A DNA stretch of 64,000 nucleotides from a virus (IMGVR_UViG_3300005512_000002:129656-193655); one strand, 5' to 3'; shown: positions 1-60,257, counted from the first letter of the stretch. Made by a program: numbers and translations. Notes: a model not told the origin generated them from the sequence alone.

Positions 1-1329
1 CCCGCCGAAGACGGCGGTGGTCAGCACGTAGTAGCGAAGCTCGCCCCAGTCGGAGGTGGCGGTCGGAAAACTGAGGCTCTGGGCATTCTCGATGGCACCG
101 GTGGTCTGGTTGTAGCTCCACCAGTGGCTGCCGGTGCCGATCGGGATGCGGCGGTAGTCCGCCTGGTACCGTTCGGCCAGTTCGTTGGCCTCCGCCGTGC
201 GCCCGGGGGCACTGTTGGTCACGGCCAGGGACAGGTTACCCATGTGGCCGGTTTCGAGCATGCGCAGGATGAACTGGCCCAGCATCCGCCGCCAGCTATT
301 GGACAGGGCCAGGGTCTCGGGGTAGCGGAATCGCCAGGTGCCATTGGCCGGCAAGGTCAGGACCTGCCCCGCCCCGACGGTGATCGGCAGGTCCTGCAAG
401 GCGTACTTGTAGACATTGCCCCCGGAAGGTGAATCGCAGAGCACCAGGTAGGGCAAGGTGCCCCACGACTCGGTGGAGGCTGGCCAGACCAGGTCCTGGA
501 CATTGACCGCCTCGCCCAGGGTGTTGAGCGTCCAGGTGTCGGCGGTGACCATGACCCGTTCGTAGGCCGGGTCTGCAGGCTCGGAAAGCGTCGAGCCGTC
601 CAGGTTGTCCAGGGGTTTGTCGTAGGCCAGGGCCACATAGAGGGCGCTAAGAGGGGTGAAGTCGGTCAGGCCGAACACGTGCTTGAGAAGTTTCTCGCAC
701 AGGTACAGGTGGTCGCCGCTTGATTCGACGCCGACCAGGTGGCCATAGAGGCTGGCCATCGCCAGGCCCCGGGCCGCGAAGCTCTTGCTCACCGCCGCCT
801 GGCCGTAGCTTTGGGCCTGGGCGGTGGCTGTGGCGGCCAGGTCGCCGGCGGTACCCACGGTCGGACAGGCATTGTAAGTGCGCCAGGGGTTCGAGCCGGG
901 TGCTGGGGTACCGAAGTTCGAGCCCCAGTAGATCCCGTCGCAACCGTCCACCCCGTTGCTCAACGCCACCCCGTTCTGCCAGCCGTCGTTGCCGCCGTAG
1001 GCGAAGTCATAGCCCTGGTCGGGCACCAGCATGACCCAGTCGTGGTAGGCGACTCCGACAGGGTTGTACCGGAAGATTTCCGGGTAGTAGCCGTTGCTGG
1101 GCTCGCCATTGACGGTCCAGCCCTCGGAGCACCCTGGCCCGGTCTGTGGTGGGCTTGAATCAGGGTAATAGCCCCCCCACGCCCCGCCGTTGTAAGGGGT
1201 GTATTCCAGGATGGTATCGCGCCACTGCTGGGCGGTCATGCTCCACCAGTGCACGCGGTAGCGACTGGGGTATGGGTAGTCCACCACCAGGGACCGGGGC
1301 TCGATCAGCGTCACGTTGCAGCAGGACAT
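1..1329 (-). CDS. tail fibre/virion protein, 3' end outside the window; missing from the ORF track
   Basis: Manual translation from ATG 1329 (MSCCNVTLIEP...) stays open to base 1. It has two copies of the domain seen in the next gene (LLKHVFG...ALYVALAYD...EPADPAYERV...WGTLPYLVLCDSPSGGNV). Confidence 0.75.
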   Translation of the reverse strand, partial: MSCCNVTLIEPRSLVVDYPYPSRYRVHWWSMTAQQWRDTILEYTPYNGGAWGGYYPDSSPPQTGPGCSEGWTVNGEPSNGYYPEIFRYNPVGVAYHDWVMLVPDQGYDFAYGGNDGWQNGVALSNGVDGCDGIYWGSNFGTPAPGSNPWRTYNACPTVGTAGDLAATATAQAQSYGQAAVSKSFAARGLAMASLYGHLVGVESSGDHLYLCEKLLKHVFGLTDFTPLSALYVALAYDKPLDNLDGSTLSEPADPAYERVMVTADTWTLNTLGEAVNVQDLVWPASTESWGTLPYLVLCDSPSGGNVYKYALQDLPITVGAGQVLTLPANGTWRFRYPETLALSNSWRRMLGQFILRMLETGHMGNLSLAVTNSAPGRTAEANELAERYQADYRRIPIGTGSHWWSYNQTTGAIENAQSLSFPTATSDWGELRYYVLTTAVFGG

Positions 1330-1374
1330 GCCAGGTTCCTGGTCCGGGGGGCCCGGGGGCCCGGGGTTCGAGGG

Positions 1375-2634: not shown

Positions 2635-2719
2635 TTCCCTTGGTCCTGTTGCCTGGGTTGCACACAAGGCGAGTTGTCATTGTACCGACAACCGTCTGGG
2701 CTTACCATACCCTTACACG

Positions 2720-6850: not shown

Positions 6851-6980
6851 TGACGCCCCTCCTAAAGGGAGACAGGCTCATCAGATGCTACTGCTGGAAA
6901 TGGAAAAACTAGGCACCGAACCCCCCGGAAGCCTGGCCCCCGCAAGCGACTCCGAAACCACCCCTCCTGCCCCGGCCTGC

Positions 6981-7961
6981 TCAGTCGCCACCTTCCGGGG
7001 GCAGGTGGCCGTGGTCCTCCAGCCACGCCACCATCGACTTCTCCAGGCCCCGTGGCATCAAGTACCGTCGCAGGATGGCGTTATCGGACATGCCCTGGTC
7101 GGCCAACGCCCGATCGCGGGCCGCCTGCACCACCGCTTCGGGCAGCGCCTTCATCCGGTTGCGCAACAGGGCCATCTCCCGCTGATCCCGCAGGGCCACG
7201 GCTTCGGCGTCGGCGTGAGCCTGCTGTCGCTGCTGCTGGGCCACCTGGCGGCGAAGCTCGGCGGCCTGGTCGGCGGGAGCCGCCTGAAGGGCCGCTTCCA
7301 GGTTTCGCACCAGCAGGCCGATCGGATTGCGGGTGCCCTGCCCCGCCGCTTCCCGCGTCTGACGTGCGACTTTTCGGATCAGTGGGACCGAGATAGCCGG
7401 AGTTTGCGCCAGTTGGCTTCGCTTGGGCTCACCGATTCTCTGCCGGGTCAGTTCGGCAACGACATCATCAGCCGGCTGCTGTTGAGGTTCTTGTTTCCGG
7501 GATCTTGTTTGGGTCCGTCCGGGCGGACGGCTGCAGTCCGTGGCGACGGACGGTGCCGGTCCGTGCTGGCGGACCGGTCCGTGGTCGCGGACCAGTCCGT
7601 CGCGGCGGACGGGTTCCAGCAGTTGGTAGACATTGCAGCCGTAGCGCGGATGGGTACCGATCAGCCCGAGCACCCCCATCGCGTACAAGCCGTTGAGGGC
7701 CTTGAAAACACTGGATCGCACCAGGCCGGTCTCGCGGCGCAAGGTGCTGATCGAGAGGTAGGCCTGAGCTTCGGTGTTGGCGTGCGAAGCCATGACCACC
7801 AGCACGTTGCGTTCGATATCGGACATGGTGGCCCACTGGCCGTCCTCGATCAGGCTTTTGTACAGGCGGAACCACGGAACGGCCCAGGCCCCCTGCCGGC
7901 TGCGCAGTTCCACATCCAGCGGCTCGTCGGATCGGATGGTGGTGGTATGAACCTGGCTCAT
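6981..7961 (-). CDS. helix-turn-helix replication initiator-like protein
   Basis: N-terminal VLVVMASHAN...AYLSISTLRRETGLVRSSVFKALNGL...NVYQL is typical of HTH_36 phage/plasmid Rep proteins; transcribed divergently from parA. Confidence 0.65.
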   Translation of the reverse strand: MSQVHTTTIRSDEPLDVELRSRQGAWAVPWFRLYKSLIEDGQWATMSDIERNVLVVMASHANTEAQAYLSISTLRRETGLVRSSVFKALNGLYAMGVLGLIGTHPRYGCNVYQLLEPVRRDGLVRDHGPVRQHGPAPSVATDCSRPPGRTQTRSRKQEPQQQPADDVVAELTRQRIGEPKRSQLAQTPAISVPLIRKVARQTREAAGQGTRNPIGLLVRNLEAALQAAPADQAAELRRQVAQQQRQQAHADAEAVALRDQREMALLRNRMKALPEAVVQAARDRALADQGMSDNAILRRYLMPRGLEKSMVAWLEDHGHLPPEGGD

Positions 7962-8695: not shown

Positions 8696-8712
8696 ACAGA
8701 AAGGAGATGCAG

Positions 8713-10832: not shown

Positions 10833-13331
10833 TCAGCCCCCAGTCCCGGGGGCACGGTCCACCAGAGCATGATCGGGATCATCACCCGCCATTGCATTGC
10901 GGATCTCCTGCAGCTTCTGGTGGCGGCGATGCAGCATGACCGTGGCGGTCACCAGGATCTCCTGGGCCGAGGCGTAGACACCCAGCCCGTCTTCGCCGGC
11001 AAGCTGATCGGTCATGGCCCCGAATCGCTCGTCCATGTCCGGGTCGTCCAGTTGGTAGGGGGCCAGGGCCTCGGTTACCACCTGCTGGTTGATCTGGGCC
11101 TTCTGCTTTTGGGTGAGATAGGGTCCCCGCTTGCCGCCGGCATGCTGCTCGCGCTTCTCGGCCTTGGCCTGTTCCTGGAGGGCCTGATCGCGCTGTTCGA
11201 TCTGATTGAGAAGCTCCTGGCTCAGGCGCACGCAAGCCACGGTCTCGCGGGTGTCCAGTTCCGGCCAGGGCACGACGAACTTGGGCTGTTCACCGTAGGC
11301 GTGCTGGTACTGGGCCCGTGACATGACCCAGTCCTTGGGGATCTCGAAGGCGGCGGCCAGTTGTTCGGCCGCCTCGTCCTCGATCCGGTCGGCGTCCACC
11401 ACCAGGCGGCAGGTGGTGCGGTCCGGGCAGGCGAAGCGGGCGGCGGCCGCCTTCTTGGGCTGGCTCTTGCCCCGCTTGTTCTTGTTGTTGTCGGCCAGGG
11501 GCGCCTTCTTGGGTTTGCCGCCGGCTGGCGAGGGCAGGATGCCACCATCGGGTCCCATGTTGTTGGCGCTGGGCAGGGGCACGAAGATGTTGTCCTTCTT
11601 GCGCATGTCGCGGGTGTCCTTGAGCCGCTGGACCACGGTGGGGAAGTGGTAGCCCAGAGTCTCCAGGGCGGTACGGGGATCGAGGATGCCGTTCTGCACA
11701 AGCTGCTGCATCACGCCGATGAACTCGGCCTCGTCGCGCAGATTGAGTTTGACGAACTTCACGTGCACCATCTTGCCGATGCCCAGGGCCTTCTTCAGCA
11801 GGTTGATCTCCTTGTTCAGGAACTCCAGGAAAGCGTCCTGGGCGGTGGTGACCTCCTCCTCCAGCCCCCGGAAGTTCATGATGCTGTTGCCGATGGCACC
11901 CGAAGTCTCGCTGGTGCCGGTGAAGATCCGCGAGATGCCGAAGCAGGTGCGGATCTGGTCGTCCCACAGGTTGTACTTGGCCGGGTCCATGAAGGCTTCG
12001 AGGCCCGGCTCAATCCACTCGATGTCCAGGGTGTGGTTCCAGTAGATCGCCAGCCCCTCGCGGCGCTGGAAGACACTCTTGAGGCGGGCGATGGAATCGG
12101 GGTTGAGCACGGGGAACGTGTCATTGCCGATGGTCACCTTGAGGATGCGTTCCTTGAGGTGCTTGGCGGTATGCTCGTCGGCGGCGATCAAGGCGTCCTT
12201 CATCTGCAGGGCCTTGAAAGCATGGCGGATCATGGGTGTGGGGTAGACCTCGTAGTCCTGCTTGTCGCTGAAGGTGATCGAGCAGATATTCGGGCTCAGC
12301 CACACCTTGCGAGCACCCTTGCGGATTTGCTGCACAAGCTCCACCGGCAGGGCGTTGATGAACTCGGCCTGCTGCTCGGTCGGATGGCGCACCGCCTGCA
12401 TGAGCGCGTCGCCGACGGTGAGGTAGGGCTGCCGCAGCAGGTCCATCTCCTCGGGCCCTTCGATGTTGACGGCCATGGGCGAGAGCAGGGTGTAGGCCGC
12501 CGGGACCATCCCCTGGAGCCATTCGTACTGCCGGCGCACGACGATGCCGGCCTGCAGCTTCAAGCGCTGGTCCGAGCAGCAGCCTTCCGCGTGGGCCTTC
12601 TCAAACTTCTCCAGCCGTTTGGCTTCCTTGAGGTAGTTCTGATAGGCCTGGTTGCCCTTGCTCATCAGGGCCCGGGCCTTGGCCATGCGTACCCGGCGGG
12701 CCTTGCGGTTGCCGGCGACCACCCGGCCGTCCTCGTTGGGCTGCGGGATCTTGCCGTCGCGGTAGTCGCGGGGCACATAGGGGATCAGGGCCTTGAGGGC
12801 CACCACGAAGCCGCTGCGAAAGTATTCGCGGAACCACTGCTCGCGGAACGAGTGGCCCATGGCCGAGTTGATCCACAGCTTCACCAGCGTGGCCACCTCG
12901 TCGTCGTCGGACTCGACCACCAGCCGGCTGTTGGCCAACTGGGTGAGGAACTTGACGCACTTGTAGACCAGCGGGTCCTTGCGCCAGTATTCCATGGCCC
13001 GACGGATGTCATTCTTGTCCCGATCGCTGCTGTTCCAGGCGCTGTCGGTTTCCGCCCAGTAGTCGAAGGCATCCCAATAATCCACCGAGACCTGGGCCGC
13101 CCCGACGCTGTGCGTGTAGTCACCGGGGGCCAGGTCGTGGATGTAGAACTCGGTTCGACCATTGACCTGACGGGTGGTCACCGGGTTGTGCGGTGCCTTG
13201 GCGCCCGGCATGTTGGCCGTGATGACCCCCTGGTCGAAATCGAACCCGTAGCGGTTGGCGTAGGACACCGGCTCGGCGGCAGCCTGGGATGCCTGCACGG
13301 CTTGGGACATGGGATTCTGAAGCTGGGTCAT
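10833..13331 (-). CDS. portal protein with a long C-terminal extension
   Basis: Directly downstream of the terminase. Has portal-like segments (KQDYEVYPTPMI, KVTIGND, WNHTLDIEWIEP, LVQNGILDPRTALETLG). Confidence 0.75.
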   Translation of the reverse strand: MTQLQNPMSQAVQASQAAAEPVSYANRYGFDFDQGVITANMPGAKAPHNPVTTRQVNGRTEFYIHDLAPGDYTHSVGAAQVSVDYWDAFDYWAETDSAWNSSDRDKNDIRRAMEYWRKDPLVYKCVKFLTQLANSRLVVESDDDEVATLVKLWINSAMGHSFREQWFREYFRSGFVVALKALIPYVPRDYRDGKIPQPNEDGRVVAGNRKARRVRMAKARALMSKGNQAYQNYLKEAKRLEKFEKAHAEGCCSDQRLKLQAGIVVRRQYEWLQGMVPAAYTLLSPMAVNIEGPEEMDLLRQPYLTVGDALMQAVRHPTEQQAEFINALPVELVQQIRKGARKVWLSPNICSITFSDKQDYEVYPTPMIRHAFKALQMKDALIAADEHTAKHLKERILKVTIGNDTFPVLNPDSIARLKSVFQRREGLAIYWNHTLDIEWIEPGLEAFMDPAKYNLWDDQIRTCFGISRIFTGTSETSGAIGNSIMNFRGLEEEVTTAQDAFLEFLNKEINLLKKALGIGKMVHVKFVKLNLRDEAEFIGVMQQLVQNGILDPRTALETLGYHFPTVVQRLKDTRDMRKKDNIFVPLPSANNMGPDGGILPSPAGGKPKKAPLADNNKNKRGKSQPKKAAAARFACPDRTTCRLVVDADRIEDEAAEQLAAAFEIPKDWVMSRAQYQHAYGEQPKFVVPWPELDTRETVACVRLSQELLNQIEQRDQALQEQAKAEKREQHAGGKRGPYLTQKQKAQINQQVVTEALAPYQLDDPDMDERFGAMTDQLAGEDGLGVYASAQEILVTATVMLHRRHQKLQEIRNAMAGDDPDHALVDRAPGTGG

Positions 13332-15141: not shown

Positions 15142-18100
15142 CTAGCTGGCCGCCACCTGCAGGTCCGTGGGTGCGGTGGGCGGATCGTTCAACTGGAACC
15201 CGCCAATTGGGCTCCAGCTACTGAATTGTTTGCCATCTGATGCCCGAACTCGCCAAAACCAGATTCCAGGTTCGGGGATGGGGCTCAATGACACGCTGGC
15301 AGAGCCCAATTCATCCTCATCCCAGATGATGTTGTCGAAATCCTCGCTGTCGGCGACCTGAACCTGGTAGGTGATGATCTCGCCAGGGTCCACGTCCGAC
15401 GCCACCGACCAGGCCAGGGCGGGTGCCGTGGTGCAAGCGATCAAAGGCACCTGGTAGAGGGTGTCCCGACCGTTGGCGGTCATGAAGCTCTGGCCCGGGG
15501 CTCCCGGCGGGCTATTCCAACGCACCTCGTAGTGGGCGGTAGCCCCGAAATAGCCGCCGGTGTTGCGGGCGGCCACATGGAAGTACCAGATTCCAGATCC
15601 GTACTGGGGACTGGCCAGGTCGATCTGGGCGGTAAGCTGGGTCGTGTCGTACCAGGTCTGGTCGGCCTGATCGAGTGCGGCGGAAGTCACCTTCCAGTAA
15701 TAGCCCACAACCGGCAGGGCCTGCCAGGACGCCAGCGACCAGGTGAAGATGATCTGAGACTCGTCCTGCCAGGACGCTTCCGGCACACTGGCCGTCAGCG
15801 GCTCGACATCGCCGGGGACTTCCGGGGGCACGGTGACCCGGGCCGCCAGGGTCTGGTTGACCGCCCGCTGCACCAGGACGCGGCCCGCGAGCACATGGGC
15901 CTGCACATTAACACGGGCCATGAGATCGTGCATGGCCATGATAAACACGCGAGCGGGCAGGTCCTGGTCGTTGCGTTCGACCACCACGCGGGCGGCCAGG
16001 GTCTGCTCGTCGGCGTCGCCCGGGGTTACCTGCACCCGGGCCGCGAGGTTGATCGACCAAAACGATTGGTACACCCGGGCCGGCAGGTCGGCCTGACCCG
16101 TGCCCTGCACGAACACCCGGGCCGGCAATGTCACGCCGGGCGGCGCGTAGACCACCACCACCCGTGCGGCCAGGTCCTCATCGGACCGTTGAAACACCTT
16201 CACGCGAGCGGCCACGGTGGCGTAGTCACCAATCTGCACCCGCGCTGGCAACGTGGCGTTGTCCGGCTCGTAGGCGTTGTACCTGGCCCACCACTGAACC
16301 CGCGTGATCTGGGGGCTGGTCAAGCCGTCGCTACTGGGCAGCACACGCAATCGCATCTGCACGTACTGGCCATAACCACCCCCGTTGACGGGCACGATCT
16401 GACCGTTCTGCGACGGGTCGTCGATGATGTTCCAGTCGGACCAGGCGATGGAGGTATTGCCTGGATCGAAGCTCTGGTCCGAAGCCCGCACGGACACGGC
16501 GACATTCTGACCGCTGGTCAGGGTGGCGAAGGTGACCTGGACCTGGTAGATGCTGGTGCCCGCGCCGTATCCGGCCAGAACCACCGGTGACAGGAGGGTA
16601 AATTGCTCGGCCTCCAGGCCCCACTGGACCGGGTCGGGGTGACGGCGGGCACTGAAGGCCTGATCGCCGGGCACCCAGGTATGATCCACCACGGGATCAT
16701 CGCCATCGAGGACCGGGTGACAATGGGCAAGCATGACTTCGTCGAGCGTGTCCTCGTAGGGCAGGCAGTAGCTGTTGGTTCCGTAGTCGCTGCCATTCCA
16801 CGGTTGCACCGAACGGGCCATGGCCCCCAGCACCGGCTTCTTGGTTTGCATCATGTCCAACCGGACCGGGCTGGACTCGGGACTCTCCAGCATGGCGAAC
16901 CAGTAATGATCCTGGTCCATGCGCACCTTGGTCTGCTGCTGGAACTTGCCGTCGATGAACCAGCGTGCGTACCACCACTGCTCGTCGGCCGAACGGGTGA
17001 AGAACTGGTGCAGCAGGATGTGTCGCCAGGCACTGGTGGCGGCCATGGCGTAGTCGGTGTACAGACTGGCCTGCTGGAACCCGAGCATGCGCCGGTGCAA
17101 CTGGCAGGAAAGCAGGATCTGGTCGTTGTTGAATCGCCCGGCGGCCAGGGTGATCGAGCCGACCACCCAGGTTCCGACAAAATCAGGATCGTTGCGGAAG
17201 TGGCCGCCCAGGATCACGCGGTAGTCGTCGGGTGTCAGGTAGGTCCAGCAGCCGATAACAAACGAGTCGTAGACCCCAGCGGGTGCCGGTGGGATCGGAG
17301 GGCTGGTACGGGTGCTTTCGTACAGGTAGCGGTAATCCACAGCCGATCCTGGCAGGTCCACGTAGGCCACGCCGGTCCCACCGCCCGGGTCGGCCTGCAG
17401 GCCGTCGGCGTTGAGCACCATGGTGCGTGTGCCGGTGCTGCCGGGGGCGGCGTCACGGCCGTCGTCCGGCGTGTTGTCGTGGGCCTGCAGGGTTCCCCAG
17501 CGATAGTGGAACAGGGGCTGCTCGATGTTCAGGCCCGGCGCCTCGGCCATGTTGCTGAAAGCCAGTCGCATGACGTTGGCAAAGACCCGCCGGTGTCCGC
17601 TCCAGAGGTCAAAGCCGTCCGTGTCGTTGTAGATCACAGTCGGCACGGGCTCGTAGACGTTCACCCGGGCGGCCAGGTCAGCCGTGTCCGGCAGGTCGCC
17701 CGGTGGCATGACGGGGAACAGTTCGCCGTCGGTATCGGAAAACGACAGGTCGTCGAGGTCAACGTGCCCGGCCGCGTCGTTGATCTGGGCCAGGCCGCCC
17801 AGCCAGATGCTGGCGATGTTGTCGTAGCCGATCCCGTGACTGAAGACCTGGCTGTGGCCACCCGTGACCGCCAGCCCGAAGGTGGAACTGTTAAGCTGCA
17901 TCCGCACCTGCTGCCAACCGCCGGTCGCGCCGCAGGCCACGGTGACCGAAGGGGTGTCCAGGCTGTCGTGGACCAGTTGCAGCAGGCCGCGTTGGATCTG
18001 CAGGTCGAAGACCCGATCGCCATTGGCATCCAGGGCCCGCATGACCGTGATGGCACCCCGGGCCCCGTGGTTGTAGACCCACGCCTGGGCATAGATCTTG

Positions 18101-21732: not shown

Positions 21733-22501
21733 GGGCGGGTCCTGCCTGGGGCGCCCCCGGAAGCCCCGGAAGTGGCGGGGTTTCCGGGGCCCGGCCGAGC
21801 TTCAGCACATCGGCGATCACCCCGTCGGCCTTGCGCGAAGCGCAGTAGTCGGCCAGGAAGGTGAGGGTGGCGACGTGCTTGTTGTCCGGCTGGGTCAGCG
21901 CGTGCGGGGCCCACTTTTCCGGCTTGGTCCAGGGGCCCATGTGTCCCGCGACAGCGTGCAGCAGAAGCAGGTGGTCGGGGTGCCCGACCTGCCCGTTGAG
22001 CACACGGGTGAAGATGGCATGGGCCATGTCCACTCCGTGGCAGGAGACGATGTAGTTGCGACCGCCACTGCCCTTGCGTTCGGGCAGATCGGCCTTGGTG
22101 GCATCGCCGTTTTTCATCATGTCGTGCAGCATGACCGCCCCCAGGACCACGTCGTGATGCCAGGTGATCGCGCGGCGGTTTTGGGGATCGACACCCTGGG
22201 GGTAGGGGTCCATGGCCCGCATGATCTCGCAGGCCCAGTAGCAGCCGTAGAGGGTGTGGCGGACCAGTCCGCCGGGGCCGGCGGAGACCGCCGGATGGTA
22301 CTTGCCGCTGTTGGACGCCGGCCGCTGCCAGAAGTCATCCTGGCAGCAGGCGGCGGCGCAGTCGATGATCCACTGTCGCCAGGCGGGGTTGCGGATGCCG
22401 TTAAGGTGCTCGACGCCGCCGTACTTCCAGGCCCCGTCGGGCAGCAGCCCCAGGGGTCCGGCGAAGTGATGGGTCATGAGGGCATGAACGTCCTGGCCCA
22501 T
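21704..22501 (-). CDS. HD-domain phosphohydrolase (phage YhaM-like)
   Basis: Motifs PASNSGKYHP...GGLVRHT, MLHDMMK, GHMGPW and LADYCASRK. Confidence 0.85.
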   Translation of the reverse strand: MGQDVHALMTHHFAGPLGLLPDGAWKYGGVEHLNGIRNPAWRQWIIDCAAACCQDDFWQRPASNSGKYHPAVSAGPGGLVRHTLYGCYWACEIMRAMDPYPQGVDPQNRRAITWHHDVVLGAVMLHDMMKNGDATKADLPERKGSGGRNYIVSCHGVDMAHAIFTRVLNGQVGHPDHLLLLHAVAGHMGPWTKPEKWAPHALTQPDNKHVATLTFLADYCASRKADGVIADVLKLGRAPETPPLPGLPGAPQAGPARAPADAPIS

Positions 22502-24416: not shown

Positions 24417-24975
24417 GGATGGTCCTCGGGAGTTGGGTGTCGGTATTGATGGGCATGATGACGCGAAAGTCGAAGCGATCGCACATGGTGGCCTCGAAGA
24501 ACTTGACATCGCCCCGGAAGAACTGGTCGTTGGCCTGTTTGATGTCGTGGTCGGGCTTGATCTTCAAGGTCTTGCGTCGGGGGGCCATGCGGGTCTTGAC
24601 GACTGTCTCGACGGCGAGCTTGACCTTTTTCTGCAGTTCGGCGGGGGTCCACAGCCGGTAATGCACGAAGGTGCAGATGGCCGACTGGGTACGATCATCC
24701 ATGGCTACCAGCACGACGTAGACGAAGGCACTGTTCAGGCCTTCGGGCGGCTGCTTGAGCGGGGTGTTCAAGACGTAGCAGGCCAGGTTGTGCACGGCCC
24801 CCAGGGGGGCATTGGGTTCACCCTGATCAGGGCCGGTGGCGGTGATGTTCTGGTACTGGAAAACCTCCTCGCCACTGTCCAGGGCTGAGACTTGGTGGCC
24901 ACCAGGATCGACCTGGGGCTTCTGGACGGCTGGGTCCTGGTTGGGATCGGGCAGAGGCAAGTGGTTCATGCTCAT
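24409..24975 (-). CDS. hypothetical protein
   Basis: ORF coupled to its neighbours; coding-like codon bias. Confidence 0.65.
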   Translation of the reverse strand: MSMNHLPLPDPNQDPAVQKPQVDPGGHQVSALDSGEEVFQYQNITATGPDQGEPNAPLGAVHNLACYVLNTPLKQPPEGLNSAFVYVVLVAMDDRTQSAICTFVHYRLWTPAELQKKVKLAVETVVKTRMAPRRKTLKIKPDHDIKQANDQFFRGDVKFFEATMCDRFDFRVIMPINTDTQLPRTIRA

Positions 24976-29419: not shown

Positions 29420-29663
29420 GGCCAATGTCTCATGAAAAACCGCCGGGGCAGCGCGATTGCGCCACACCCGACGGCTTCCGGGGGCAAGATAATCCTCCTC
29501 CTGCCTGGTGGGGCAACCTACCAGGACACCACGACCTGTGCAAGTCCGACCAGGTTTGCACGGGTTTCCCACAATCGGACCCGGGAATCCTGCACATGGC
29601 CGGCGGCCTGCCCGGCTATCGGTGCGCCCCGGAATCCCACACACGCAGGCCAGGAGACCAGCC

Positions 29664-32443: not shown

Positions 32444-32513
32444 ATGTCACCCCAGGGTGAACTCGTGTTCACCCCCGGAAGCAACCCCAGCGTGACATCA
32501 CCCCTTCCGGGGG
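32444..32513. promoter_or_regulatory. operator pair plus an inverted CCCCCGGAAG...CTTCCGGGGG repeat at the head of the long rightward array
   Basis: ATGTCAC-CCCAGG-GTGAACT at 32444 and a half-degenerate copy ending GTGACAT at 32498. Confidence 0.55.
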
Positions 32514-42906: not shown

Positions 42907-43338
42907 ATGAGCATCGCCGCACCCAAAAAGACACGCGACAACAAGACCAAGCTGGCCTTCGAGCAGTTCATGCGTGACCGGGCTGTGCCCTACGTCGAGG
43001 TGAACGAGGCCAAGCGAGCTTTGTCCGGCCCGCCCCGGCCCGGTCAGGCCATCTCGCAGACCCTGGGCGGTCTGGACTTCGTGGTGTACCTGGCGCACGG
43101 CCCCCACCTGCTGGTGTCCTGCCGCCGCCAGACCGACCAGAACAAGCAGGACATGGCCAAGTGGGGAGAAATCTTCGGCGGTAAAGACTTTCAGCCCTGC
43201 TTCGTGACCCACCGTCGCCGCGTCGGCTGGTCGTGCCACAGCCCCGCCGGCGAGGTGATGCTCCCCCTCTGGCCCGAGCCCCCGGAAGCCCCGGAAGCCC
43301 CGGAAGCCCCCTTGGGTGGCACCACAAGCATCGTGTAA
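42907..43338 (+). CDS. HYExAFE-family-like protein (degenerate)
   Basis: KLAFEQFMRDRAVPYVEVNEAKRAL...LDFVVY...LLV matches the family pattern as recalled from memory. Confidence 0.55.
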   Translation: MSIAAPKKTRDNKTKLAFEQFMRDRAVPYVEVNEAKRALSGPPRPGQAISQTLGGLDFVVYLAHGPHLLVSCRRQTDQNKQDMAKWGEIFGGKDFQPCFVTHRRRVGWSCHSPAGEVMLPLWPEPPEAPEAPEAPLGGTTSIV

Positions 43339-44247: not shown

Positions 44248-45045
44248 ATGACACCCATCCACGTCTACATCGAACCGCAGAACGAACAAACCGCCGCCGC
44301 CATGTGGCTGCACCTGGCCCAGGCCAGTGTCTCGTACTACTACATCGGCGCCGCCAGCATGGGTGTCAACGGCTTTGCCTTCAAGCCGCTGGATGCCGAC
44401 AACCGCACGGACCTGGTCAAGACCCTCACCGACTGGGGCACGCAGGCCGGCGTCACCGTCCGCATCGAGACCCCCAAAGCGGTCGGCAAGTACATCCGCA
44501 TCGAATACGACGACGATCCGCCCTGCCCGATGGACGACGACGGGCAGTGGACGTTGCACTCGTTCTGCTCGAAGCACAAGCACTACAAGGACCCCGACAC
44601 CTTGCTCCGGGACCCTTCCGGGGGTGAGGGGCTGCCTCTGGCCCTGCGCAACAAGCTCAAGGCCGGCACCGCGTTCTTCCTGAGCTATTTCGAGCACGGC
44701 CTGTGCAAATGGGGTCTGGCCGGCAGTATGGACAACACCCCGGACTTCCGGTGGGACGGCACGAGCATGGCCGGCCTGCTGGTGTGGGAGCATCCCACCA
44801 GCGACATGGGTGCCAAGACCTACGCCGACCGCCAGAAAGACGCCGCAGGCTTCCTGCGGGAGTACACCGCCTGGTGCAACGGTGAGGTGTACGGCTACGT
44901 GATCGAGGACGAAGACGGTGACACGCTGGACTCCTGCTTCGGCCACGTCGGCTCCGACGGACTGGAAGACCAGATCGCCGAACTGTTCGAGCAGTGGGGC
45001 CAGCTTGAGCCCAAAGGACATCTGGCCGAGACCTACGTCCCCTGA
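44248..45045 (+). CDS. conserved phage/mobile-element protein (YTAWCNGEVYGYVIED...DSCFG motif)
   Basis: The C-terminal motif is common in small-gene arrays of large phages; function unknown. Confidence 0.6.
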   Translation: MTPIHVYIEPQNEQTAAAMWLHLAQASVSYYYIGAASMGVNGFAFKPLDADNRTDLVKTLTDWGTQAGVTVRIETPKAVGKYIRIEYDDDPPCPMDDDGQWTLHSFCSKHKHYKDPDTLLRDPSGGEGLPLALRNKLKAGTAFFLSYFEHGLCKWGLAGSMDNTPDFRWDGTSMAGLLVWEHPTSDMGAKTYADRQKDAAGFLREYTAWCNGEVYGYVIEDEDGDTLDSCFGHVGSDGLEDQIAELFEQWGQLEPKGHLAETYVP

Positions 45046-45697: not shown

Positions 45698-46468
45698 ATG
45701 ACCCCACACATCAAACTCGACGACGACGTAAGAGATGTCCTGGAACGGTCCGCAATCACCGACACGCAGCTTGTGCTGCCCGATCAGCTTGAGCGCAAGC
45801 TGTACGAGCGGGTGAACAAGGTGATCGTGGCCGCCGGCGGCAAGTGGCTTCGCAAGGCCAAGGCCCATGTCTTCACCCGCGACCCGCGCCAGGTGCTGGG
45901 CCTGGCCCTGGCCAACGGCCAGATCACCGACACCAAGAAGCTGCACAACCAGTTCTTCACGCCGCCGGACCTGGCCGCCCGCATGTGCCAGATGGCCCTG
46001 GTCCGACCGGCCAAGATGGTGCTGGAACCGTCGGCGGGCGCCGGTGCCCTGGTTGACGCAGCCATCCAGGCTGGCGGGAAAGTCACTGCCATCGAGATCG
46101 ACCTGGATCTGGTGTCACGCGAACTGATCAAGTTCCCCATCGAGCACCTGGTGACGGTAGACTTCCTGGAACTGACCACCAAGCACCTGCCGGCGTTCGA
46201 CTGTGTGGTCATGAACCCGCCGTTCGCCAACAATGCGGACATCAAGCACGTCACCCACGCCTTCGAGTTCCTGCGACAGCACAGCTTTGGCCAGGGCCGA
46301 CTGGTGGCGGTGATGAGCCCGCACTTCACGTTCGCCGAGGACAAGCCCAGCAAGCAGTTCCGCAAGCTGGTCAACACCCACGGCGTCTACGAGAAGCTGC
46401 CCGAGGACACCTTCCGGGGGGCGGGCACCAGTGTCAACACCGTGCTGGTCACCCTGGAAAGAAACTGA
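45698..46468 (+). CDS. solitary SAM-dependent amino (N6-adenine) DNA methyltransferase
   Basis: Motifs FFTPPDLA, LEPSAGAG (motif I), VVMNPPF (motif IV) and FRGAGTSVNT. Confidence 0.9.
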   Translation: MTPHIKLDDDVRDVLERSAITDTQLVLPDQLERKLYERVNKVIVAAGGKWLRKAKAHVFTRDPRQVLGLALANGQITDTKKLHNQFFTPPDLAARMCQMALVRPAKMVLEPSAGAGALVDAAIQAGGKVTAIEIDLDLVSRELIKFPIEHLVTVDFLELTTKHLPAFDCVVMNPPFANNADIKHVTHAFEFLRQHSFGQGRLVAVMSPHFTFAEDKPSKQFRKLVNTHGVYEKLPEDTFRGAGTSVNTVLVTLERN

Positions 46469-47958
46469 ACCGAGCCACCCATGAAAGCCACCGTCACACT
46501 CACACTGAACGTCCCCGCCAAGACCAACGTCAAAGCGCTCAAGAAGGTCATCCGCATGATGTTCGATATCGGCAAATACGACGCGGTCCTGACACTGAAG
46601 GATCTACCCGAGCCGGATCGGGACAGCAACCCCGAGGCCCTGCTGGCCAGTGACCTCACCCTCAAGAAGGTCGATGTAAACTCGGACCTGACCGCCACCC
46701 CCCGGAAGCCCAAGTCATGAGTGAACCCATCAACACCGAGATCGAGATCGGCGGCAATCTGCCCGAAGCCCTGATTGTCCTTCTGGCCCAGGCCGCCGAG
46801 GCCGACGGGGCCAGTGGCGGCCCTGCCGGCGAGCCGGCCAAAGCCGAGAAACTGGCCCAGGACATCCGACTGCAAGACCCCCAGGCATCACTGACCCTGT
46901 ACGCCCTGAAAGCCGAGTACGGTGACCTGCCTGCGATCATCGAGTTCTGTCAGGAGCACCATCTGGCCTACCGCAAGCACGTAGAGGCCAAGGACCACTA
47001 CGAGGCCGACATCACCTGGTGGCAGCCGGGAATGCTGGAGCCTAAAACCGTCCAGGCCGACCAGAACCAGCACCCCTGCATCCGCGTGGCGGACGTGCGC
47101 GAGGTCATCGCCAAGGGCTCGAAACGGGACGTGATCAAACGCCTCACCGCCCTGCTCGACGAACACACACCCATCGAAGTCCCGCCGCTGACCCTCACGG
47201 AGTAACCCATGGCGATCGAGTTCAACAAGACACCGCGACCAGTTTCCAAGGACGCCAAACCGCAAGCGGCTTTCGGGGATTCCGGGGGTTCCGGGGGTTC
47301 CGGGGGTTGCGGGGGCGGGGGCAAGGGGCCGGCCGTGATCCAGATGGCCAGCGAGGATCAGATCGACGCGGCCATCGCCCGGCACGATCGCACCTGGCTG
47401 GCCAACCCCCAGTGGGGACCGCCCCAACGCCGACCGGACGACCCGCTGGTCCGCAGTATCTACTTCAAGCCGGGCGAAAACTTCCGGGGGCACGTGGTGG
47501 TCGAGGTGTGGCGGACCGCCGGCCCCGGCTGTGCGGACGCCGTGCTGCACTTGACACTGATAGCACCCGACGGAAACTGCTGGGGCCTGATCGGCCACGA
47601 GGCCGAACGCCTCAGCCGCGACCTGCGCGAGGGTCCCCGCCCCCGCCGCCGCCCCCGGAAGTCAAGCCCCCGGAAGCACCCCCAGAAGCAACCCCGGAAG
47701 ACCAACCCATGAAAGTCCAAATCCTCACCGTGATCGAGATCGACGTAGACCCGAAGACCAAGCCCAGCCAACTGGCCGACCACGCCCAGACCAAGCTGGA
47801 CGCCTTCCGCGAGGCGATCGGACCCAGCGAGAACTACGGCCTGTGCATCTTCCGGGCCACCGGCGACGATCTGGACCGGTTCCGGCACGATGAATGTATG
47901 GCCGTCGGGCCGCATGGTTTCATCCTGCCCCGACTGACTCCCGACTGAGCAACGAACC

Positions 47959-49241: not shown

Positions 49242-49559
49242 ATGCTGCTATGGCTCAAACATCACGGTGAGGACCAGCGCCGCTGCTTCTCGGACGTGAA
49301 CGACCTGGTGGACTATTTGCGGGACGAGACATTCACCGCCCCGCTTATCCGCCAGGACGCGACGGACAGCGTTTGCGGCTACCGCTTCGACGCCCCGTGG
49401 TTGGCCCAGGACCAGTTCCTGGTGCTCTACTGGGGCGATCAGCAAGGCGTGGCCGAAGCGGCCTTGAATGACCAGGAAGTGGCCGAGATCAACGGGGCCC
49501 TGGCCCAAGGCGTGGCCGACCCCCCGCCCCCGGAAGACACGGACCCCCCGGAAGCATAA
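49242..49559 (+). CDS. hypothetical protein, paralog A
   Basis: Shares M.LWL, LYWGD..G..EAAL.DQE.A.IN.AL with the next gene. Confidence 0.75.
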   Translation: MLLWLKHHGEDQRRCFSDVNDLVDYLRDETFTAPLIRQDATDSVCGYRFDAPWLAQDQFLVLYWGDQQGVAEAALNDQEVAEINGALAQGVADPPPPEDTDPPEA

Positions 49560-49853: not shown

Positions 49854-51954
49854 CCCATGCCCCGCATCTGGATCTGCATCAACGCCACGCCCGAGAAGCC
49901 GGTTCCCGAGAACCCCGAGAACGACGCCCTGGACTTCTGCGCCAAGTGCTGGCCGCCGCACGAAGATGAACTGCTGGCCCTGGGCTATACCAGCTTCGTG
50001 ATCCAGCAGGCCCTGCCACCGCAGTCGGCACCCGAAGAAGCACGCGACCACCCGCCCTACGCCGAGACCAGCTACAAGTGCGAAGCCTGCGGCACCCCGC
50101 TGACCAACCAGGATGACTGACCCCATGAAAGTTGAAAACCGACCCACCGCATACGAAGTCTGGCATAACACCCAGTGCGAGCACTGCGGCGCGGACCTGA
50201 TGGAACTGCGCAGCATCCACGTGGACCTGTCCGACGGTGACAAGGTGTACGACACGGTGCACAGCCACGTCAACGCCGACGGCCAACTCGCCGACCCCAC
50301 GGATGACGAGGCCATCAACGAACAGGGCCACCACGCCGGCAGCAGGTGCGTCAACTGTGAGGAACTGCTCGAAGAACTCCAGCCCCCCACCCCGGAAGCT
50401 GAGAACGCCATGAGCCAAGCCAACCACCACCCCGAAAGCCCCGGCCCGCAGGATGAAGCTCCCGAGCCCCGCAAAGTCGAGTTCTTCCGGCTGCTGGAAG
50501 ACCACACCTGGGACACCTTCGTCGAGACCCTGCCGCCGGTCGGCGAGTTCACTAGCGACGACCCCACCTGGGACGACGTGTGCCAGGACGACTTCAACCG
50601 CTTCATGGACCAGTTCATCCACGAGAAGCTGATCGGCCAATGCCAGCACCGCAAGGCCGTCATGATGGGGGTCTACAACAGCGACCCGGAGCAGGAATAA
50701 AAAGCTCATGACCAACCCCTTCCCCTTCCAGATCGAGAGCATCGTCATCCCCGGTTTCAAGCTCCAGGCAGTAGTGGCCGCCCTGCTCGAAGCCTCCCAG
50801 TGGTTCGCCGTCATGCCCTTGCCCGACGAGGACTGGCAGATTTCCGTCAAGGTCGAGACACTGGACATGCTCAACGGCATCGTCCAGCACGTGACCGACC
50901 ACGGTACCCCGACCGAAGACCAGCCCGCGCCCGTCCGCATCGCCGTCGCCATCGAGGGCGGCCTGGTCCAGAGCATCTGCTCGGATCAGCACCAGTTGGC
51001 CGGCCAACTGGTGGACATCGCCATCGTGGACTATGATACCGACGGGGTTGAAGACGACGAAATCACCCTGGTCACCCAGGACAACGGCGACCAGGCCCGG
51101 GCCCGCGTCATCGGGTGGGGCATCGAACCGGCCGACATCAACCTGGACGAGGTATTCGGCTGAAATGGCCACCATCACCCCGAAGGTGAAGCCCATGCCC
51201 ATGTTCGACATGATGGTGAGACTGGTTCAAGCGTGGTTGCCCATGTGGAAGCATCTGCTCGATGCCTGCATGTGCTTCCACTGGCCGGTCATCGCCCACG
51301 AGGTGCTGCCCAAGCTGCAACCGGACGTGGACCTGGAACTGACCGAGTTCCGACTGCCCTACCCGGTGATCGCCGTCGAGGACCGGGGCGGGGTCACCGT
51401 GCTGGTGGACAAAACCTCGGGCCAGAAGGGCCTGCACACCCCCAGGCTCTACCTGGACTGCATCCCGCCGGCGGTGGCCCGCGACCCCCGGGCCTACGCC
51501 CAGGGCAGCTACGGCCCGCAGGAAGAAGCAGCCATGCTCCACAACCCGGTCTGCCAGTACCCGGTGGTCAACGTGGGCAGCATGGTCATCACCGGCTACC
51601 GCTATTCGGAAACCTCCGGAGAGCCATGCACCTGGATGATCGAGGGTACCATCGACCACTCCCTGGTCGGCACACCCGACCGGCTCATCATGCCACCCGA
51701 CTTTGTCCAGCGCTTCGACCAGTCCTTGCAGGACGCCACCGTGCTGACGGCCGTGCGTAACGCAGTGACCTGCATGGACAGCATCATGACCATTCCGACC
51801 CTGCCCGAGTTCGGCGTCCCGCCAGCCGGCGGTGACCCGGGCGGCTCCACTTCCGGGGGTTGGCCGCCCCCGGAACTTCACCCGCCTCCGCCGGGGCTCA
51901 GCCTGCTCAGTCACCAGCGACCCGTCTGGGAGATCCATCCGGTCACCGGACGGA

Positions 51955-52840: not shown

Positions 52841-53689
52841 ATGCACGTCGTCAACGTCGCCAGTGTACCACAACGCAGCGTCTTCCGCTACCCCGGCGGC
52901 AAGACCTGGCTCGTGCCCCACTTCCGCCAGTGGATGGCCGGACTGGGCTTCAAGCCCAGGTTCCTGGTCGAGCCGTTCTGCGGCGGCGGGATCATCGGCC
53001 TGACGGCCCTGTTCGAGCGACTCACCACCCAGGGTGTGGTCCTGGGTGAGCTTGACCCGCACGTCAGTGCCGTGTGGCGGGTGCTGACCAACTACAGCCA
53101 GGCCACGTTCCTGGCCGTCGCGATCCTGGCCTACCCGATCAGCCGCGAGCGGGTGATCCAGGACCTCAAGCGTGAGCCGGTCGATATCGCACACCACGCT
53201 TTTCTCACCATCCTGCGCAACCGGGTACAGCGGGGTGGCATCATGAGCCCCGGTGCCAGCCTTATGCGTAACGGCGAGAACGGCAAGGGTGTGGCCAGTC
53301 GCTGGTATGCCAACACCCTGTACGAGCGGATTCTGGCCATCCGCGACCACGCGGCGGACTTGAGTTTTGTCGAGGGTGACGGCCTGGCCCTGATGCGGCG
53401 GCACCTCAAGCAGAAGCGCACCGCGTTCTTTGTTGATCCCCCCTACACCGCCGGCGGCAAGCGGGCCGGCAAGCGGCTGTACACGGTGAACAACGTGGAC
53501 CACGCCAAGCTGTTCGAGTTGGCCGCCCGGGCCGCCGGGCCGGTCATGATGACCTACGACGACGCCCCGGAAGTGCGGGCTCTGGCCCGCCGCTATAAGC
53601 TCACCGTCACCGAGATCCCCATGAAGTCCACCCACCACGCCAACATGGTCGAACTGGTCATCACCCATGCCGGGAGACTCACCCCATGA
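52841..53689 (+). CDS. Dam/D12-class N6-adenine DNA methyltransferase, likely cognate of the nuclease
   Basis: Motifs FRYPGGKTW, VEPFCGGG, FVDPPY and MMTYDD. Confidence 0.92.
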   Translation: MHVVNVASVPQRSVFRYPGGKTWLVPHFRQWMAGLGFKPRFLVEPFCGGGIIGLTALFERLTTQGVVLGELDPHVSAVWRVLTNYSQATFLAVAILAYPISRERVIQDLKREPVDIAHHAFLTILRNRVQRGGIMSPGASLMRNGENGKGVASRWYANTLYERILAIRDHAADLSFVEGDGLALMRRHLKQKRTAFFVDPPYTAGGKRAGKRLYTVNNVDHAKLFELAARAAGPVMMTYDDAPEVRALARRYKLTVTEIPMKSTHHANMVELVITHAGRLTP

Positions 53690-56600: not shown

Positions 56601-59600
56601 GTGGCCTGGCAGATGGCCGATCAGCCCCTCACGCGGGACATGGTGCTCGACCAACTGACTGGTCACACGCCCGACGACGACCACACCTGCCCGCACTGCG
56701 GCGCGGGCTTGCTGCACATCCTGACCATCCAGGGCCAGCAACTCTGGAGTATCCGACCATGACCCATGCCAGCGCCATGACCGTGCCCGAACTGCTTGAC
56801 ACGCTGCTGGAGAAGCTCGCCGAATACCGCCAGGCCGGGTCCGCCGGCATCAGCTTCTCGGTGATCACCGACTACGACGACGTGGTCACCGTGGGCGACA
56901 CGGTGGACGAGCTTGTCCGCCGCACTAACCAGATCCCGCTCAAGACCCTGCTGGCCGCCAGCCACGCCGGAGACTGACCTGCATGACCGCCAAACTCCCC
57001 CAAGTCCAGACCGACACGCTCGCCCTGCTCGCCGAGCAGCTTGCCGCCGTCAAGCAGCTTCTGGAAAAGCGGGCCCAGACCCTGGCCGAGCAGGATTTAC
57101 CCCTGTCGCCCATCGAGGAACTGGGTGTGCCCAACAACCTGCGCGAAGCGAGCTTGAGACTCGGCTACGCCATCCGCTGTCTGGATCACGACGGCGAGCA
57201 CCTGGAACTCTGGGGCAACGATGGCGAGCCGGGTGCCCCGGACACCCACCCGCGTCGCGGGCCCTACGTCCCGGATGATCGGTTCCACGCCATTCCCCGC
57301 ATGCTCAACGAATGGAAGCCATGAACACCCCCGAAAACACCCCCGAACACCCCCGCGTATTATTCAAGTTCAACCACGCCAACGAGTGGCTGGAGCACAA
57401 GATCCAGGACCACGAGATGAACAAGGACCCGCGCGAGGGCCGGCAGGCCCTGGCCGGCATGCTGCGATCGGTCGCCACCATCCTCGACGGTGACCAGGTC
57501 CAGGACATCTTCCAGCAGGAGATGGACGCCGACGGCTTCTTCAACCCCACCTACGTCGATCAGTACGGTGACCAGGTGCCCAACGACCTGGTCCTGCTGC
57601 CGGACTACGACGACCTGGACGACGAGGAGGTGAAGACCGTCCTGACCGCCAACTGGTACCAGCCCGAGGGCCGGCACGGGTGCCTCATGGCCTCGGCCCG
57701 GGACCTGGGCGATCTCAGCGAACTCGATCCGGCCGACGCCGACGTGGACCTGACCCACGCCGACACCCGCATCGACCGCGTGGATAACTGCCTGAAGCGC
57801 GGCAACCCCCAAGACGGGTTCTATCACGCATGACCCGCCAACAGCACCGCCACGTGGCCGCCGGGATTCTGACCCAGACGGTCCAGCCCGAGCACTGCTG
57901 CGACAGCACGCAGACCTATGCCCGAGGGTATCTGGACGCCTGCCGCGACGCCGCAATCATCACCCTGGCCGAACACGAAGCAGCCTTGAGCTTCCTGTTC
58001 CAGGACACGGTCCCCCAACACCTCGAACACTGGTGGAAGAACACCCGATGAACACCACAACCTACTGCCGAACCGTCGGCCGGGCCATCGCCACCCTGGA
58101 CAAGGGCAGCTTCGCCCGACCCGACGAGAACAAGAACCGCGACGGCCAGGACTGGATCACCGCTCGCAACCTGCTGTTTGGGATTCTCAAGCGCAACGGC
58201 TATGAGTTCTGCCAGCCCGACAGTTCGCGCATTAAGAAAACCCGCAAGGTCCAGCCCCCGGAACCCCCGGAAGCCATCGAGCCGGGCGTCACCATCGACA
58301 TCGCCGAGCAGGTCCGCTTCCAGAGCGACATGCCCGACGTGCTGCGCCGGGTGGCCGACCTGGTGGACCAGGGCTACACCAGCGGCATCGACCCGACCTG
58401 GAGCCTCCAGGGCGAAGACGCCTTCGACCCCGCGACGGGTAAACGCTGCCTGGACTGCAACGCCCTGAACCCGCCCGAGGCCAAGACCTGCGAAGACTGC
58501 GGGTCCGAGGAGTTCGAGCACCATGACGACGACGACAGCAACCAAAGCACCTCTGATTGAACTGACCACCTGCCGCCGGCTGTTCGGTGGGCCGGGCACC
58601 CAGGAAGCGATCAACCGCCACAGCGTCCGATATTACCGCTTCAAGGGTCGCCTGCTCCACCTGGATCGCAACCTGTCCATCTCACCGCCCTGCTTCCGCC
58701 TCAGCCGCATTCCCAAACCCATGAGCCACGCGATGCAGATTGCCCAGACCGTGCAGGTCGAGGGTGCCGAATACTTTGCCAACGGCGAACCCTGGGCCCG
58801 GGCCGAACGGGCCGTCCAGCAAGCCCTGCACGCCGGCGAGATCCGACGAGACGCCAGTGGCGATGACCCGTTCATCCTCAAGGGCTGTCTGGGCTAAACT
58901 TCCGAGGTCCAGGGGCCGATACGGGTGGTATGGAACGCATCAAAGAGTTCGTCCAGGCGTGGGGGCCCACGGTGTTGTGCCTGCTGGCCTGCCTGCTGCT
59001 GGCGTATATTCTCTGGGACCAGCAGCACAGCCGGATTACGGCCCGCCAGGTGGCACCGCCACCTGGGATCAGGGGGCTGAACCCGGCCGATGCGCCGCCG
59101 AGTCTGTGCCCTCGGCACCGCTGGCTGCGACCTACGCCACAGCCGGCCGGTGACGGCGTGTGACCGAGCCAACAACTTCCCCTGGCCGGCCAGTCACCCG
59201 CCCACACGACCCCCCGACCCGCACGCCCGACCTGCACCTCCCCGCAGGCGGGCGTGCTCTATTATCTACCATGACCCGACCAAGCAAAACCCACGCCTGG
59301 GACCACGTCTGGCAGGACACTCAATCCGCCCATTGGCTCAGCCATCAGGAACCGGCCCCCAGCGACCACCACCGCGAAGTGGCCGACGCCCTGGGCCAAC
59401 TCTCGCGGCGCCAGGATCTCACCATCGAGGTCATTCACCTCGTCGGCGAGGCGGTACACTATGCCTACGAGGCCGGCCGCTTCGACGCACTGAAATAAAG
59501 GACACCAAGAACATGGACGCACAGCGCATGCTCGACCTGGATCGCATGGTCCGCCGCCTGCAGGATGCGGCGGGTGTGTTCGCCCAGACCACCAACTGTC

Positions 59601-60257
59601 TGGCCGAGATCGAAGCAATGAAGGTGGCCAACGCCGAACGGCAGGCCAACGGCCATGCCGCCGCCTACCACGAAGAATCTTTCCGGGCCCTGCCGGCCCA
59701 GTACGGCATCACGCAGGACGCCGTGCACCACTGGCTGTTCCAGGACTGACAGGAGCCGCCATGAAGATCATCGTCCGCCGCGAGCCGGCCCGGGTGCTGA
59801 TGCTGCCCTACCCCACACCCAGCGGGTTCGGCGGACCCGGGGTGGTCATCCCGGTGGCGCAATACACCTTCAGCCACGCCTACGGCTTGCAGGTCATCGT
59901 CACCCGGCCACCGTGGCACGAGATGCTGACCCTGGACGCACGCGGCGAAGTGTTCAGCCCCGACCAGATCACCGACATCCTCACCGAAATGCGCCACGCG
60001 GGGGTCGAGCCCACCGACGAGCAGGTCACCGTGCACCGCCCCGCCGGCCAGTTCGGCTGGCCCGAGCCCCCGGAGACCTAGCCCCCGGAGACCTAGCCCC
60101 ATGCGTAACGGTCGCGGTGCAGCCGCACCGGCCCCCGCCCCCGGAAGCCCAATCCGGACAGTCCGGCACCTGCCCGCTGGCCCTGTCGGGATTGAGGGGT
60201 ATAATACCTAACGGTGCATTGCTGAAAACAAAAACCCCTTTTATGCAACTGGAAGAC

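Follow-up and report, generated by a model that had tools for sequence, protein, structure and literature searches.

The best described counterparts of the system reported here are the uptake signal sequence (USS) of the Pasteurellaceae, with the core AAGTGCGGT, and the DNA uptake sequence (DUS) of the Neisseriaceae, GCCGTCTGAA. To our knowledge, sequence-specific DNA uptake words are known from only these two proteobacterial families. Temperate phages of the Pasteurellaceae accumulate the USS of their host up to a host-like frequency, and from this property a shared evolution of phage and host was inferred (Szafranski et al. 2019, PMC6776037). In this study, we analyzed a 64,000-nucleotide stretch of viral DNA (IMGVR_UViG_3300005512_000002:129656-193655, hereafter the window), which forms the final 64 kb of a record of 193,655 bp (65.4% GC), and in which a short word, the 10-mer CCCCCGGAAG and its 9-mer form CCCCGGAAG, is present in great excess. 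Positions refer to the window unless they are given as genome positions. We consider it highly probable (about 0.9) that this is a sharp, double-strand word of a subgroup of the Phycisphaeraceae and of its mobile elements, not a trait of the phage lineage, and that it was written into the phage under a nucleotide-level directional pressure via tolerated mutations.

The 9-mer CCCCGGAAG occurs in the window in 40 exact copies, 27 on the plus strand and 13 on the minus strand, as the initial annotation of this DNA had counted by eye, while dinucleotide-preserving shuffles gave 1.36 ± 1.11 copies with a maximum of 6. The two commonest 9-mers of the whole record are CCCCCGGAA (118 copies) and CCCCGGAAG (110 copies), and Markov models of order 1–4 predicted 3.3–6.5 copies of the latter. 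The 10-mer was found 90 times in the record against 0.8 expected, an approximately 100-fold excess. From an alignment of all the phage copies, the consensus R-CCCCCGGAAG-Y was obtained, in which the 8-bp core CCCCGGAA is strict, with a preference for C and G at its flanks. Single-mismatch variants of CCCCCGGAAG at positions 2–9 were near the background level, and positions 1 and 10 were relaxed (G and C/T were tolerated). Neither a conserved flank past 10–11 nt nor a target-site duplication was seen in this alignment. The word is non-palindromic, its reverse complement being CTTCCGGGGG. The literature search on CCCCCGGAAG itself, or on over-represented oligonucleotides in the Phycisphaerae, gave nothing relevant.

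For the copies in coding sequence, a codon-model gene map of 210 open reading frames (ORFs) was prepared and then corrected for 36 tRNA genes. Coding sequence contained 79 copies, as compared with 14.1 ± 3.4 (maximum 23) when synonymous codons were shuffled within each gene with the protein and the codon usage kept, and with 4.5 when the codon order was shuffled. The enrichment thus survived both the codon-aware and the Markov-aware null models. The coding excess over both codon shuffles indicates a bias toward the word in the peptides and, to a greater degree, in the choice of codons. Each of the six reading frames is occupied, and the copies are read as PRK, PPE[AV] and PGS in the sense direction and as LPG, FRG and SGG in the antisense direction. 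Protein-level selection for Pro-rich linkers is ruled out by this occupancy. The frames and the codon-aware null together support the earlier proposal that what is under selection or drive is the DNA rather than the protein.

The copies form 86 clusters in the record (68 singles, 12 doubles and 6 triples). Tandem arrays make up 18 of them and consist of direct repeats with periods of 9–24; the same-strand spacings were 9 and 12 (six times each), 15 (five times), 14 (twice), and 18, 20 and 24 (once each). Inverted terminator-like pairs number five, and every tandem or inverted arrangement that the initial annotation had named is present. Its description of the placement was also confirmed: 26% of the clusters lay within 10 nt of the boundary of a coding sequence or a tRNA gene, against 4% of random points (Mann-Whitney P = 1e-9), and the copies are found where constraint is weak. 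At least partly intergenic were 26 of the 86 clusters, about three times the share of intergenic DNA in the genome (9.8%), and the positions within genes showed a U-shaped distribution. Wholly inside coding sequence were 60 clusters. With respect to transcription, sense and antisense clusters were similar in number (25 and 35), and neither the position nor the orientation of the phage clusters was biased with regard to promoters or gene starts. We consider that purifying selection removes copies elsewhere and so leaves them gathered at the ends of genes, in the flanks of tRNAs and in linkers, and that they do not gather there as marks of joints. The copies at 37954, 50390 and 58265 do lie in Pro/Glu-rich linkers, two of which adjoin Cys-rich zinc-ribbon-like segments, but the claim that they join unrelated domains was not borne out, as Pfam recognised no domain flanking these three linker copies. 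The record itself starts (genome 1–60) inside a (CCCCCGGAA)n array without a terminal repeat and may be incomplete, and several contigs of metagenome-assembled genomes (MAGs) likewise begin or end in (CCCCCGGAA)n arrays; word arrays probably break assemblies.

The exact dimer of the word was searched for in 185,579 species genomes, one per prokaryotic species, and in IMG/VR. Matches in the species genomes were mainly from MAGs of Phycisphaera, Phycisphaeraceae, Phycisphaerales, Phycisphaerae and Planctomycetota, with several separate copies per locus; the Streptomyces-type matches had only the one dimer. Five Phycisphaeraceae-type genomes contained 295–1410 copies of the word, against 26–52 copies of a reversed-word control. 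The word was enriched 3–50 fold in about 40 of the 101 genomes of one Phycisphaeraceae family, to which the richest genome belongs, and none of 80 genomes sampled across the class was clearly enriched, the highest value being about 3 fold. The host consensus, CCCCCGGAAG(t), matches that of the phage. In two rich host genomes, the word was present in all frames with an intergenic excess, and copies were located inside the genes for PEP carboxykinase (PEPCK), EPSP synthase, dihydrolipoamide dehydrogenase, a P-type ATPase, an ABC transporter and an aminotransferase. The word is therefore not a phage-specific signal, as it had been taken to be; host chromosomes carry it at a comparable frequency, although somewhat less densely, and in similar places, an outcome that the initial annotation had named as refuting its view. 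In one rich host genome, designated G005, the word is also centred in a longer repeated intergenic element, ...cacagcacgc..CCCCGGAAGatg.tg.g.ggcaccc, at two loci (for example at L172:2134, L177:5100 and L177:5854), and this may be a second repeat family built around the word.

Other mobile elements also have the word. The IMG/VR scan gave further contigs dense in single copies, with GC contents of 54–72% and no proteins in common with this phage. Three proviruses had 19 copies in 35 kb, 8 in 24 kb and 7 in 36 kb (0.2–0.54 per kb), and the controls gave 0–1. One complete genome was only 2.6-fold enriched; its copies were located in islands, two of which are a Mu-like prophage and an element encoding a serine recombinase and DNA methylases. 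The strand counts were equal in every host genome examined, and the strands were intermixed along a 4.1-Mb chromosome. Twenty 20-kb samples (400 kb) from both GC-skew arms of a 3.9-Mb enriched contig contained 17 plus-strand and 22 minus-strand clusters. This absence of strand bias in the contig and the chromosome speaks against a role like that of the FtsK-orienting polar sequences (KOPS) or of Chi, and a same-strand run of 53 matches in one genome was a listing artefact.

Relatives of the phage were found via TerL (13364–15136) only in a large protein database. A megablast comparison of 20 kb with 50,697 phage records detected no relative, tblastn with the AAA ATPase gave distant matches only, a TerL pattern scan of IMG/VR and a TerL search of all 144 host-family genomes gave nothing, and the GenBank phage collection searched contained no member of the TerL family. 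The members of this family are 40–67% identical to the TerL of the phage, and several are on contigs of 160–198 kb, some of which are labelled as Phycisphaerales or Planctomycetota MAGs; the homologues at 51–67% identity are on contigs of 39–198 kb. Several of the relatives' TerL genes contain inteins (LAGLIDADG/Intein_splicing). The TerL neighbourhoods of six relatives were compared, amounting to about 114 kb of non-redundant sequence (GC 55–65%) with about 25 kb of synteny to this phage. They had no copy of the 9-mer and one of the 8-mer core, as compared with 8 and 11 in the 25 kb of this phage that are syntenic with them. The GC content of the closest relative (64%) is no different, and no comparable dominant word was prominent in 13–22 kb samples of the relatives. 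Since these six relatives share the head genes without having a copy, no conserved phage protein requires the word, and the idea that an organising protein or methyltransferase of the phage binds it was not supported. Because unrelated elements share the word and related phages are without it, its reader is most likely host-encoded.

These comparisons also indicated how the copies arise. At one site in the portal gene, three relatives have AAC TTC AAG GGC/GGT (NFKG), whereas the phage has AAC TTC CGG GGG (NFRG); three base changes, with one conservative amino-acid change, yield the full 10-mer. A 45-bp intergenic triple array of the word ends 4 nt before an ATG in the phage, while the flanking genes abut in the closest relative. 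When the host PEPCK of a rich genome was compared with that of a poor one (73% identity), one copy had arisen by substitution in the conserved KLPGV, one was in a lineage-specific low-complexity insertion and one at the edge of an indel. A mini-transposon or pure insertion origin is ruled out, as copies arose via substitution in conserved codons and codon choice, without target-site duplication. Because both substitution and insertion contribute, a pure insertion element is insufficient, and a directional pressure accepting any tolerated mutation fits. Into conserved proteins of the phage the word came by point substitutions and codon choice, into tails and linkers by in-frame tandem duplications, and between genes by the insertion of short arrays. 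Repetitive extragenic palindromic (REP) sequences, bacterial interspersed mosaic elements (BIME) and repeats resembling miniature inverted-repeat transposable elements (MITE) are likewise dispersed short repeats at gene ends with some inverted pairs. However, those are imperfect palindromes of 20–40 nt and intergenic only, whereas the present word is a 10-mer with about 70% of its clusters inside coding sequence.

As for the nature of the pressure, the reading that we favour, at somewhat less than even odds and by analogy with USS and DUS, is an uptake-sequence-like one. A host-encoded protein would read the word in either orientation, word-bearing DNA would be preferentially transferred or retained so that word-bearing alleles spread by molecular drive, and a long-resident temperate element would drift to a host-like word density, as the Pasteurellaceae prophages did with USS. 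Under this reading the word would be a host tag, from which we infer a host in the word-rich Phycisphaeraceae subgroup. Like USS and DUS, it is a non-palindromic word of 9–12 bp with a sharp core and with hundreds to thousands of copies (0.1–0.6 per kb here); it is equally distributed on both strands without replication polarity, occurs in all frames and is over-represented between genes, is limited to a subgroup of one family, and is gained by substitution in tolerant codons. It differs from them in belonging to the Planctomycetota, in its frequent direct tandem arrays and few inverted terminator pairs, and in the phages and prophages, which are at least as dense in it as the host chromosomes; an uptake role here would be an extension by analogy. 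The temperate Pasteurellaceae phages are similar in that the host word is present at a host-like frequency, that relatives with other hosts are without it, and that the word can be used for inferring the host and the time of co-evolution. On the other hand, all phages of more than 150 kb in that work were USS-poor and presumed lytic (PMC6776037), whereas our 194-kb phage with Rep and ParA is the richest genome seen. The ComEC core, a DNA import channel, was found in 87 of the 101 family genomes, which is permissive evidence only.

Several observations weigh against the uptake-like reading. The density in the phage, 0.57 copies/kb (0.44 clusters/kb), is above that of every sampled host (maximum 0.39/kb), and prophages are dense in the word within a nearly unenriched genome, whereas USS and DUS are denser in the core genome than in accessory DNA, islands being DUS-poor (PMC6776037, PMC7371117). 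This high density in mobile DNA is the main point against simple passive drive, and the main point for a self-mark carried by mobile elements. We do not assign the word to the USS/DUS class, because it is not denser in core than in accessory DNA and uptake itself is a prediction by analogy; however, the order of mobile elements above hosts is not decisive against that class, since the hosts sampled may not include that of the phage. The presence of ComEC was independent of enrichment, two enriched incomplete genomes having no match, and no report of natural competence in the Phycisphaerae lineage was found in the literature searched. We know of no tandem arrays as a feature of USS or DUS. In addition, the antisense word (CUUCCGGGG) was located at the 5′ end (−1 to +1 nt) of five tRNA genes of the phage, those for Gly(gcc), Leu(caa), Pro(ggg), Arg(ccg) and Val(cac), a position that a pure tolerance model does not predict.

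These five belong to a block of 36 minus-strand tRNA genes upstream of the window (genome 82,541–93,078; about −47,100 to −36,600), in which no gene encodes CCA and the trailers mostly start with CTT(G/T). Sense arrays of CCCCGGAAG were located 4–10 nt past the 3′ end of the genes for tRNA-Glu(ttc), Ser(gct), Ala(tgc) and Asp(gtc), and, if the block is transcribed polycistronically, word copies would enclose sets of tRNAs between 9-bp stems. Among 33 tRNA genes in host or other loci, none had the word beside it. A reading that takes in both the tRNA copies and the density can be put forward tentatively, and we rank it below the uptake-like one: the word may be what a sequence-specific system of DNA transfer or self-recognition reads in a subgroup of the Phycisphaeraceae, which would then be the first of the uptake-signal kind beyond the Proteobacteria; temperate phages, this one among them, may be selected to carry it above the host density as a passport, and not only through passive amelioration; and the copies at the tRNA ends may have a second, phage-specific use in RNA processing.

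The initial annotation had proposed a phage signal at the joints of modules, which might act by micro-homology (the RuvB-like motor being a possible partner), be bound by an organising protein or methyltransferase of the phage, or seed G-quadruplexes. The enrichment at gene and tRNA boundaries agrees with such a role, as do the antisense 5′ copies and sense 3′ arrays that bracket tRNA groups. Neighbouring phage clusters also switch orientation beyond chance (52 switches vs 40.7 ± 4.3, P = 0.004, permutation of 88 same-strand clusters), but this alternation was not replicated in host or other viral loci (110 switches vs 106.6). A further comparison is at a cassette hot spot (6851–10832), which separates the portal gene from the head gene that follows it and at which this phage has Rep-like, ParA-like, partner and PEP-CTERM-like genes. 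An inverted pair of the word is present at one edge of this Rep/ParA cassette, and the other edge is without a copy. The relatives carry, at the same place, 502-aa and 147-aa ORFs, or cadherin/Big_9, Cpn10 and a methyltransferase, or DUF4031 and an integrase, or nothing. Because relatives without the word hold different cassettes there, module exchange at this hot spot is independent of the word, and breakpoints of gene gain and loss did not coincide with the word at this hot spot within the 25 kb of synteny. The word is, furthermore, comparably frequent in the housekeeping genes of the hosts; the copies within conserved folds came about through substitution rather than at joints; and most copies are single, so that four-run quadruplexes cannot form. 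The proposal is thus largely refuted, and we regard a module-joint role as very improbable. The relatives encode integrases, one of them at this hot spot, and from these and its own ParA-like and Rep-like genes, the phage looks temperate.

The remaining explanations place the reader in the host, as the uptake-like one does. The strongest of them, still an unlikely one, is a Chi-like self-mark, in which a host nuclease or defence system would spare or repair word-bearing DNA, the chromosome and, more strongly, phages and prophages would be selected for copies, and arrays would raise recognition. Chi, the site of RecBCD/AddAB, is also an over-represented host word that phages can carry, and the self-mark logic fits mobile elements that are at least as dense as host chromosomes; direct-repeat arrays would suit a reader of one orientation. 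AddAB-like pairs (two PDDEXK_1 proteins, about 950 and 1100 aa long) were present in 100 of the 101 family genomes, but without correlation with enrichment; AddAB, near-universal like ComEC, does not discriminate between the readings and leaves the patchy enrichment unexplained. RecC was found in three of the 101, none of them enriched. Replication polarity, or co-orientation with replication as in Chi, was detected neither in the 3.9-Mb contig nor in the phage, and a word of 8–10 bp with a 15–50-fold excess is longer and far more extreme than the Chi sites known to us. We give still less credence to binding-site arrays for an abundant nucleoid-associated or regulatory protein of the host, which the phage would keep for recruiting that protein. 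The sharp 8-bp core is typical of protein recognition, and intergenic arrays of period 9–15 stand beside start codons and ribosome-binding sites. However, hundreds of copies are deep within the coding parts of housekeeping genes, in every frame and in either orientation, the clusters are indifferent to promoters and gene starts, and relatives with the same gene order do without the word. Equally doubtful is a sequence-specific bias of mutation or repair, as proposed for HIP1 (highly iterated palindrome 1, GCGATCGC) of cyanobacteria, by which a host enzyme would turn near-matches into the word and the word itself would be functionless. HIP1 is a lineage-specific, hyper-abundant short word inside and between genes as well, but it is palindromic, whereas the present word is not and forms direct arrays. 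CCGG and CCSGG are common cytosine-methylation sites and are contained in the word, copies did arise via point substitution in conserved codons, and a long-resident phage would meet the same bias. Against this, a non-palindromic word of 8–10 bp is much longer than the contexts of very-short-patch repair known to us, near-match variants were not below expectation, and the inserted arrays are left unexplained.

The copies listed in the window are collected in Table 1. Outside the window, two giant minus-strand ORFs (genome about 100,400–115,900, about 5160 aa, and 73,900–82,100, about 2716 aa) have four word copies each.

Table 1. Word copies in the window (window coordinates; +, plus strand; −, minus strand)
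Feature	Position	Strand	Context
Single copy	420..428	+	Antisense in 477-aa gene, reads SGG
Inverted pair, 69 nt apart	6923..7000	6923-6931 (+), 6992-7000 (−)	Plus copy intergenic, minus copy at 3′ end of Rep-like gene; one edge of Rep/ParA cassette
Portal-gene copy	11866..11874	+	Substitution: AAC TTC CGG GGG (NFRG)
Single copy	15819..15827	−	Sense, 1209-aa gene, PPEV
Tandem x2, period 9	21755..21772	+	Antisense near gene 3′ end, LPGLPG; 21755/21764
Single copy	24512..24520	+	Antisense, FRG
Single intergenic copy	29475..29483	−	
Intergenic inverted pair	32473..32512	both	9-bp arms, 22-nt spacer; 32473/32504
Single copy	33014..33022	−	Antisense, SGG
Intergenic copy	33151..33159	−	Directly upstream of GGAAGGAG ribosome-binding site; gene start 33175
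Single copy	34772..34780	+	29 nt ahead of stop codon, PPEV
Tandem x2, period 9	35445..35462	+	Gene codons 4-9, PGSPGS; 35445/35454
Single copy	36749..36757	−	Antisense, FRG
Tandem x2, period 15	37430..37453	+	Right behind start codon, PRKQT PRKQT; 37430/37445
Single copy	37954..37962	+	Mid-gene linker, TPGS
Palindromic cluster CCCCCGGAA / CTTCCGGGGG / CCCCGGAAG	39641..39667	both	Gene 3′ end
Single copy	42492..42500	−	Antisense, FRG
Tandem x3, period 9	43280..43306	+	C-terminal tail, PEAPEAPEA
Single copy	44615..44623	−	Antisense, SGG
Single copy	46411..46419	−	Antisense, FRG; methyltransferase-like gene
Single copy	46700..46708	+	12 nt ahead of stop codon, PRK
(TTCCGGGGG)x3, equal to three minus-strand CCCCCGGAA 9-mers without final G	47283..47309	−	
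Single copy	47481..47489	−	Antisense, FRG
Three copies, spacings 15 and 24	47653..47700	+	Basic C-terminal tail, PRK..PRK..PRK; 47653/47668/47692
Two copies, 18 nt apart	49528..49554	+	Second ends 5 nt before stop codon; 49528/49546
Single copy	50390..50398	+	Pro/Glu-rich linker behind Cys-rich segment
Single copy	51850..51858	−	Antisense, SGG
Single copy	53565..53573	+	D12-class adenine methyltransferase gene, APEV
CCCCCGGAA then CCCCGGAAG, period 9	58256..58273	+	Linker, PPEPPEA
Single intergenic copy	60139..60147	+	

For the annotation of these genomes, the result is a warning that the low-complexity PEA, PGS, PRK and LPG tracts are driven by the DNA and should not be taken for functional repeats of the protein. 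The word also offers a strong tag for the hosts of uncultured phages and plasmids that needs no alignment, and by it the 194-kb phage would be placed in the Phycisphaeraceae subgroup even though its closest relatives are without the word. The genetics of the Planctomycetota and their capacity for natural transformation have hardly been explored. If the uptake-like reading is true, this would be the third independent case, and gene flow and the recognition of 'self' would become testable in the Planctomycetota.

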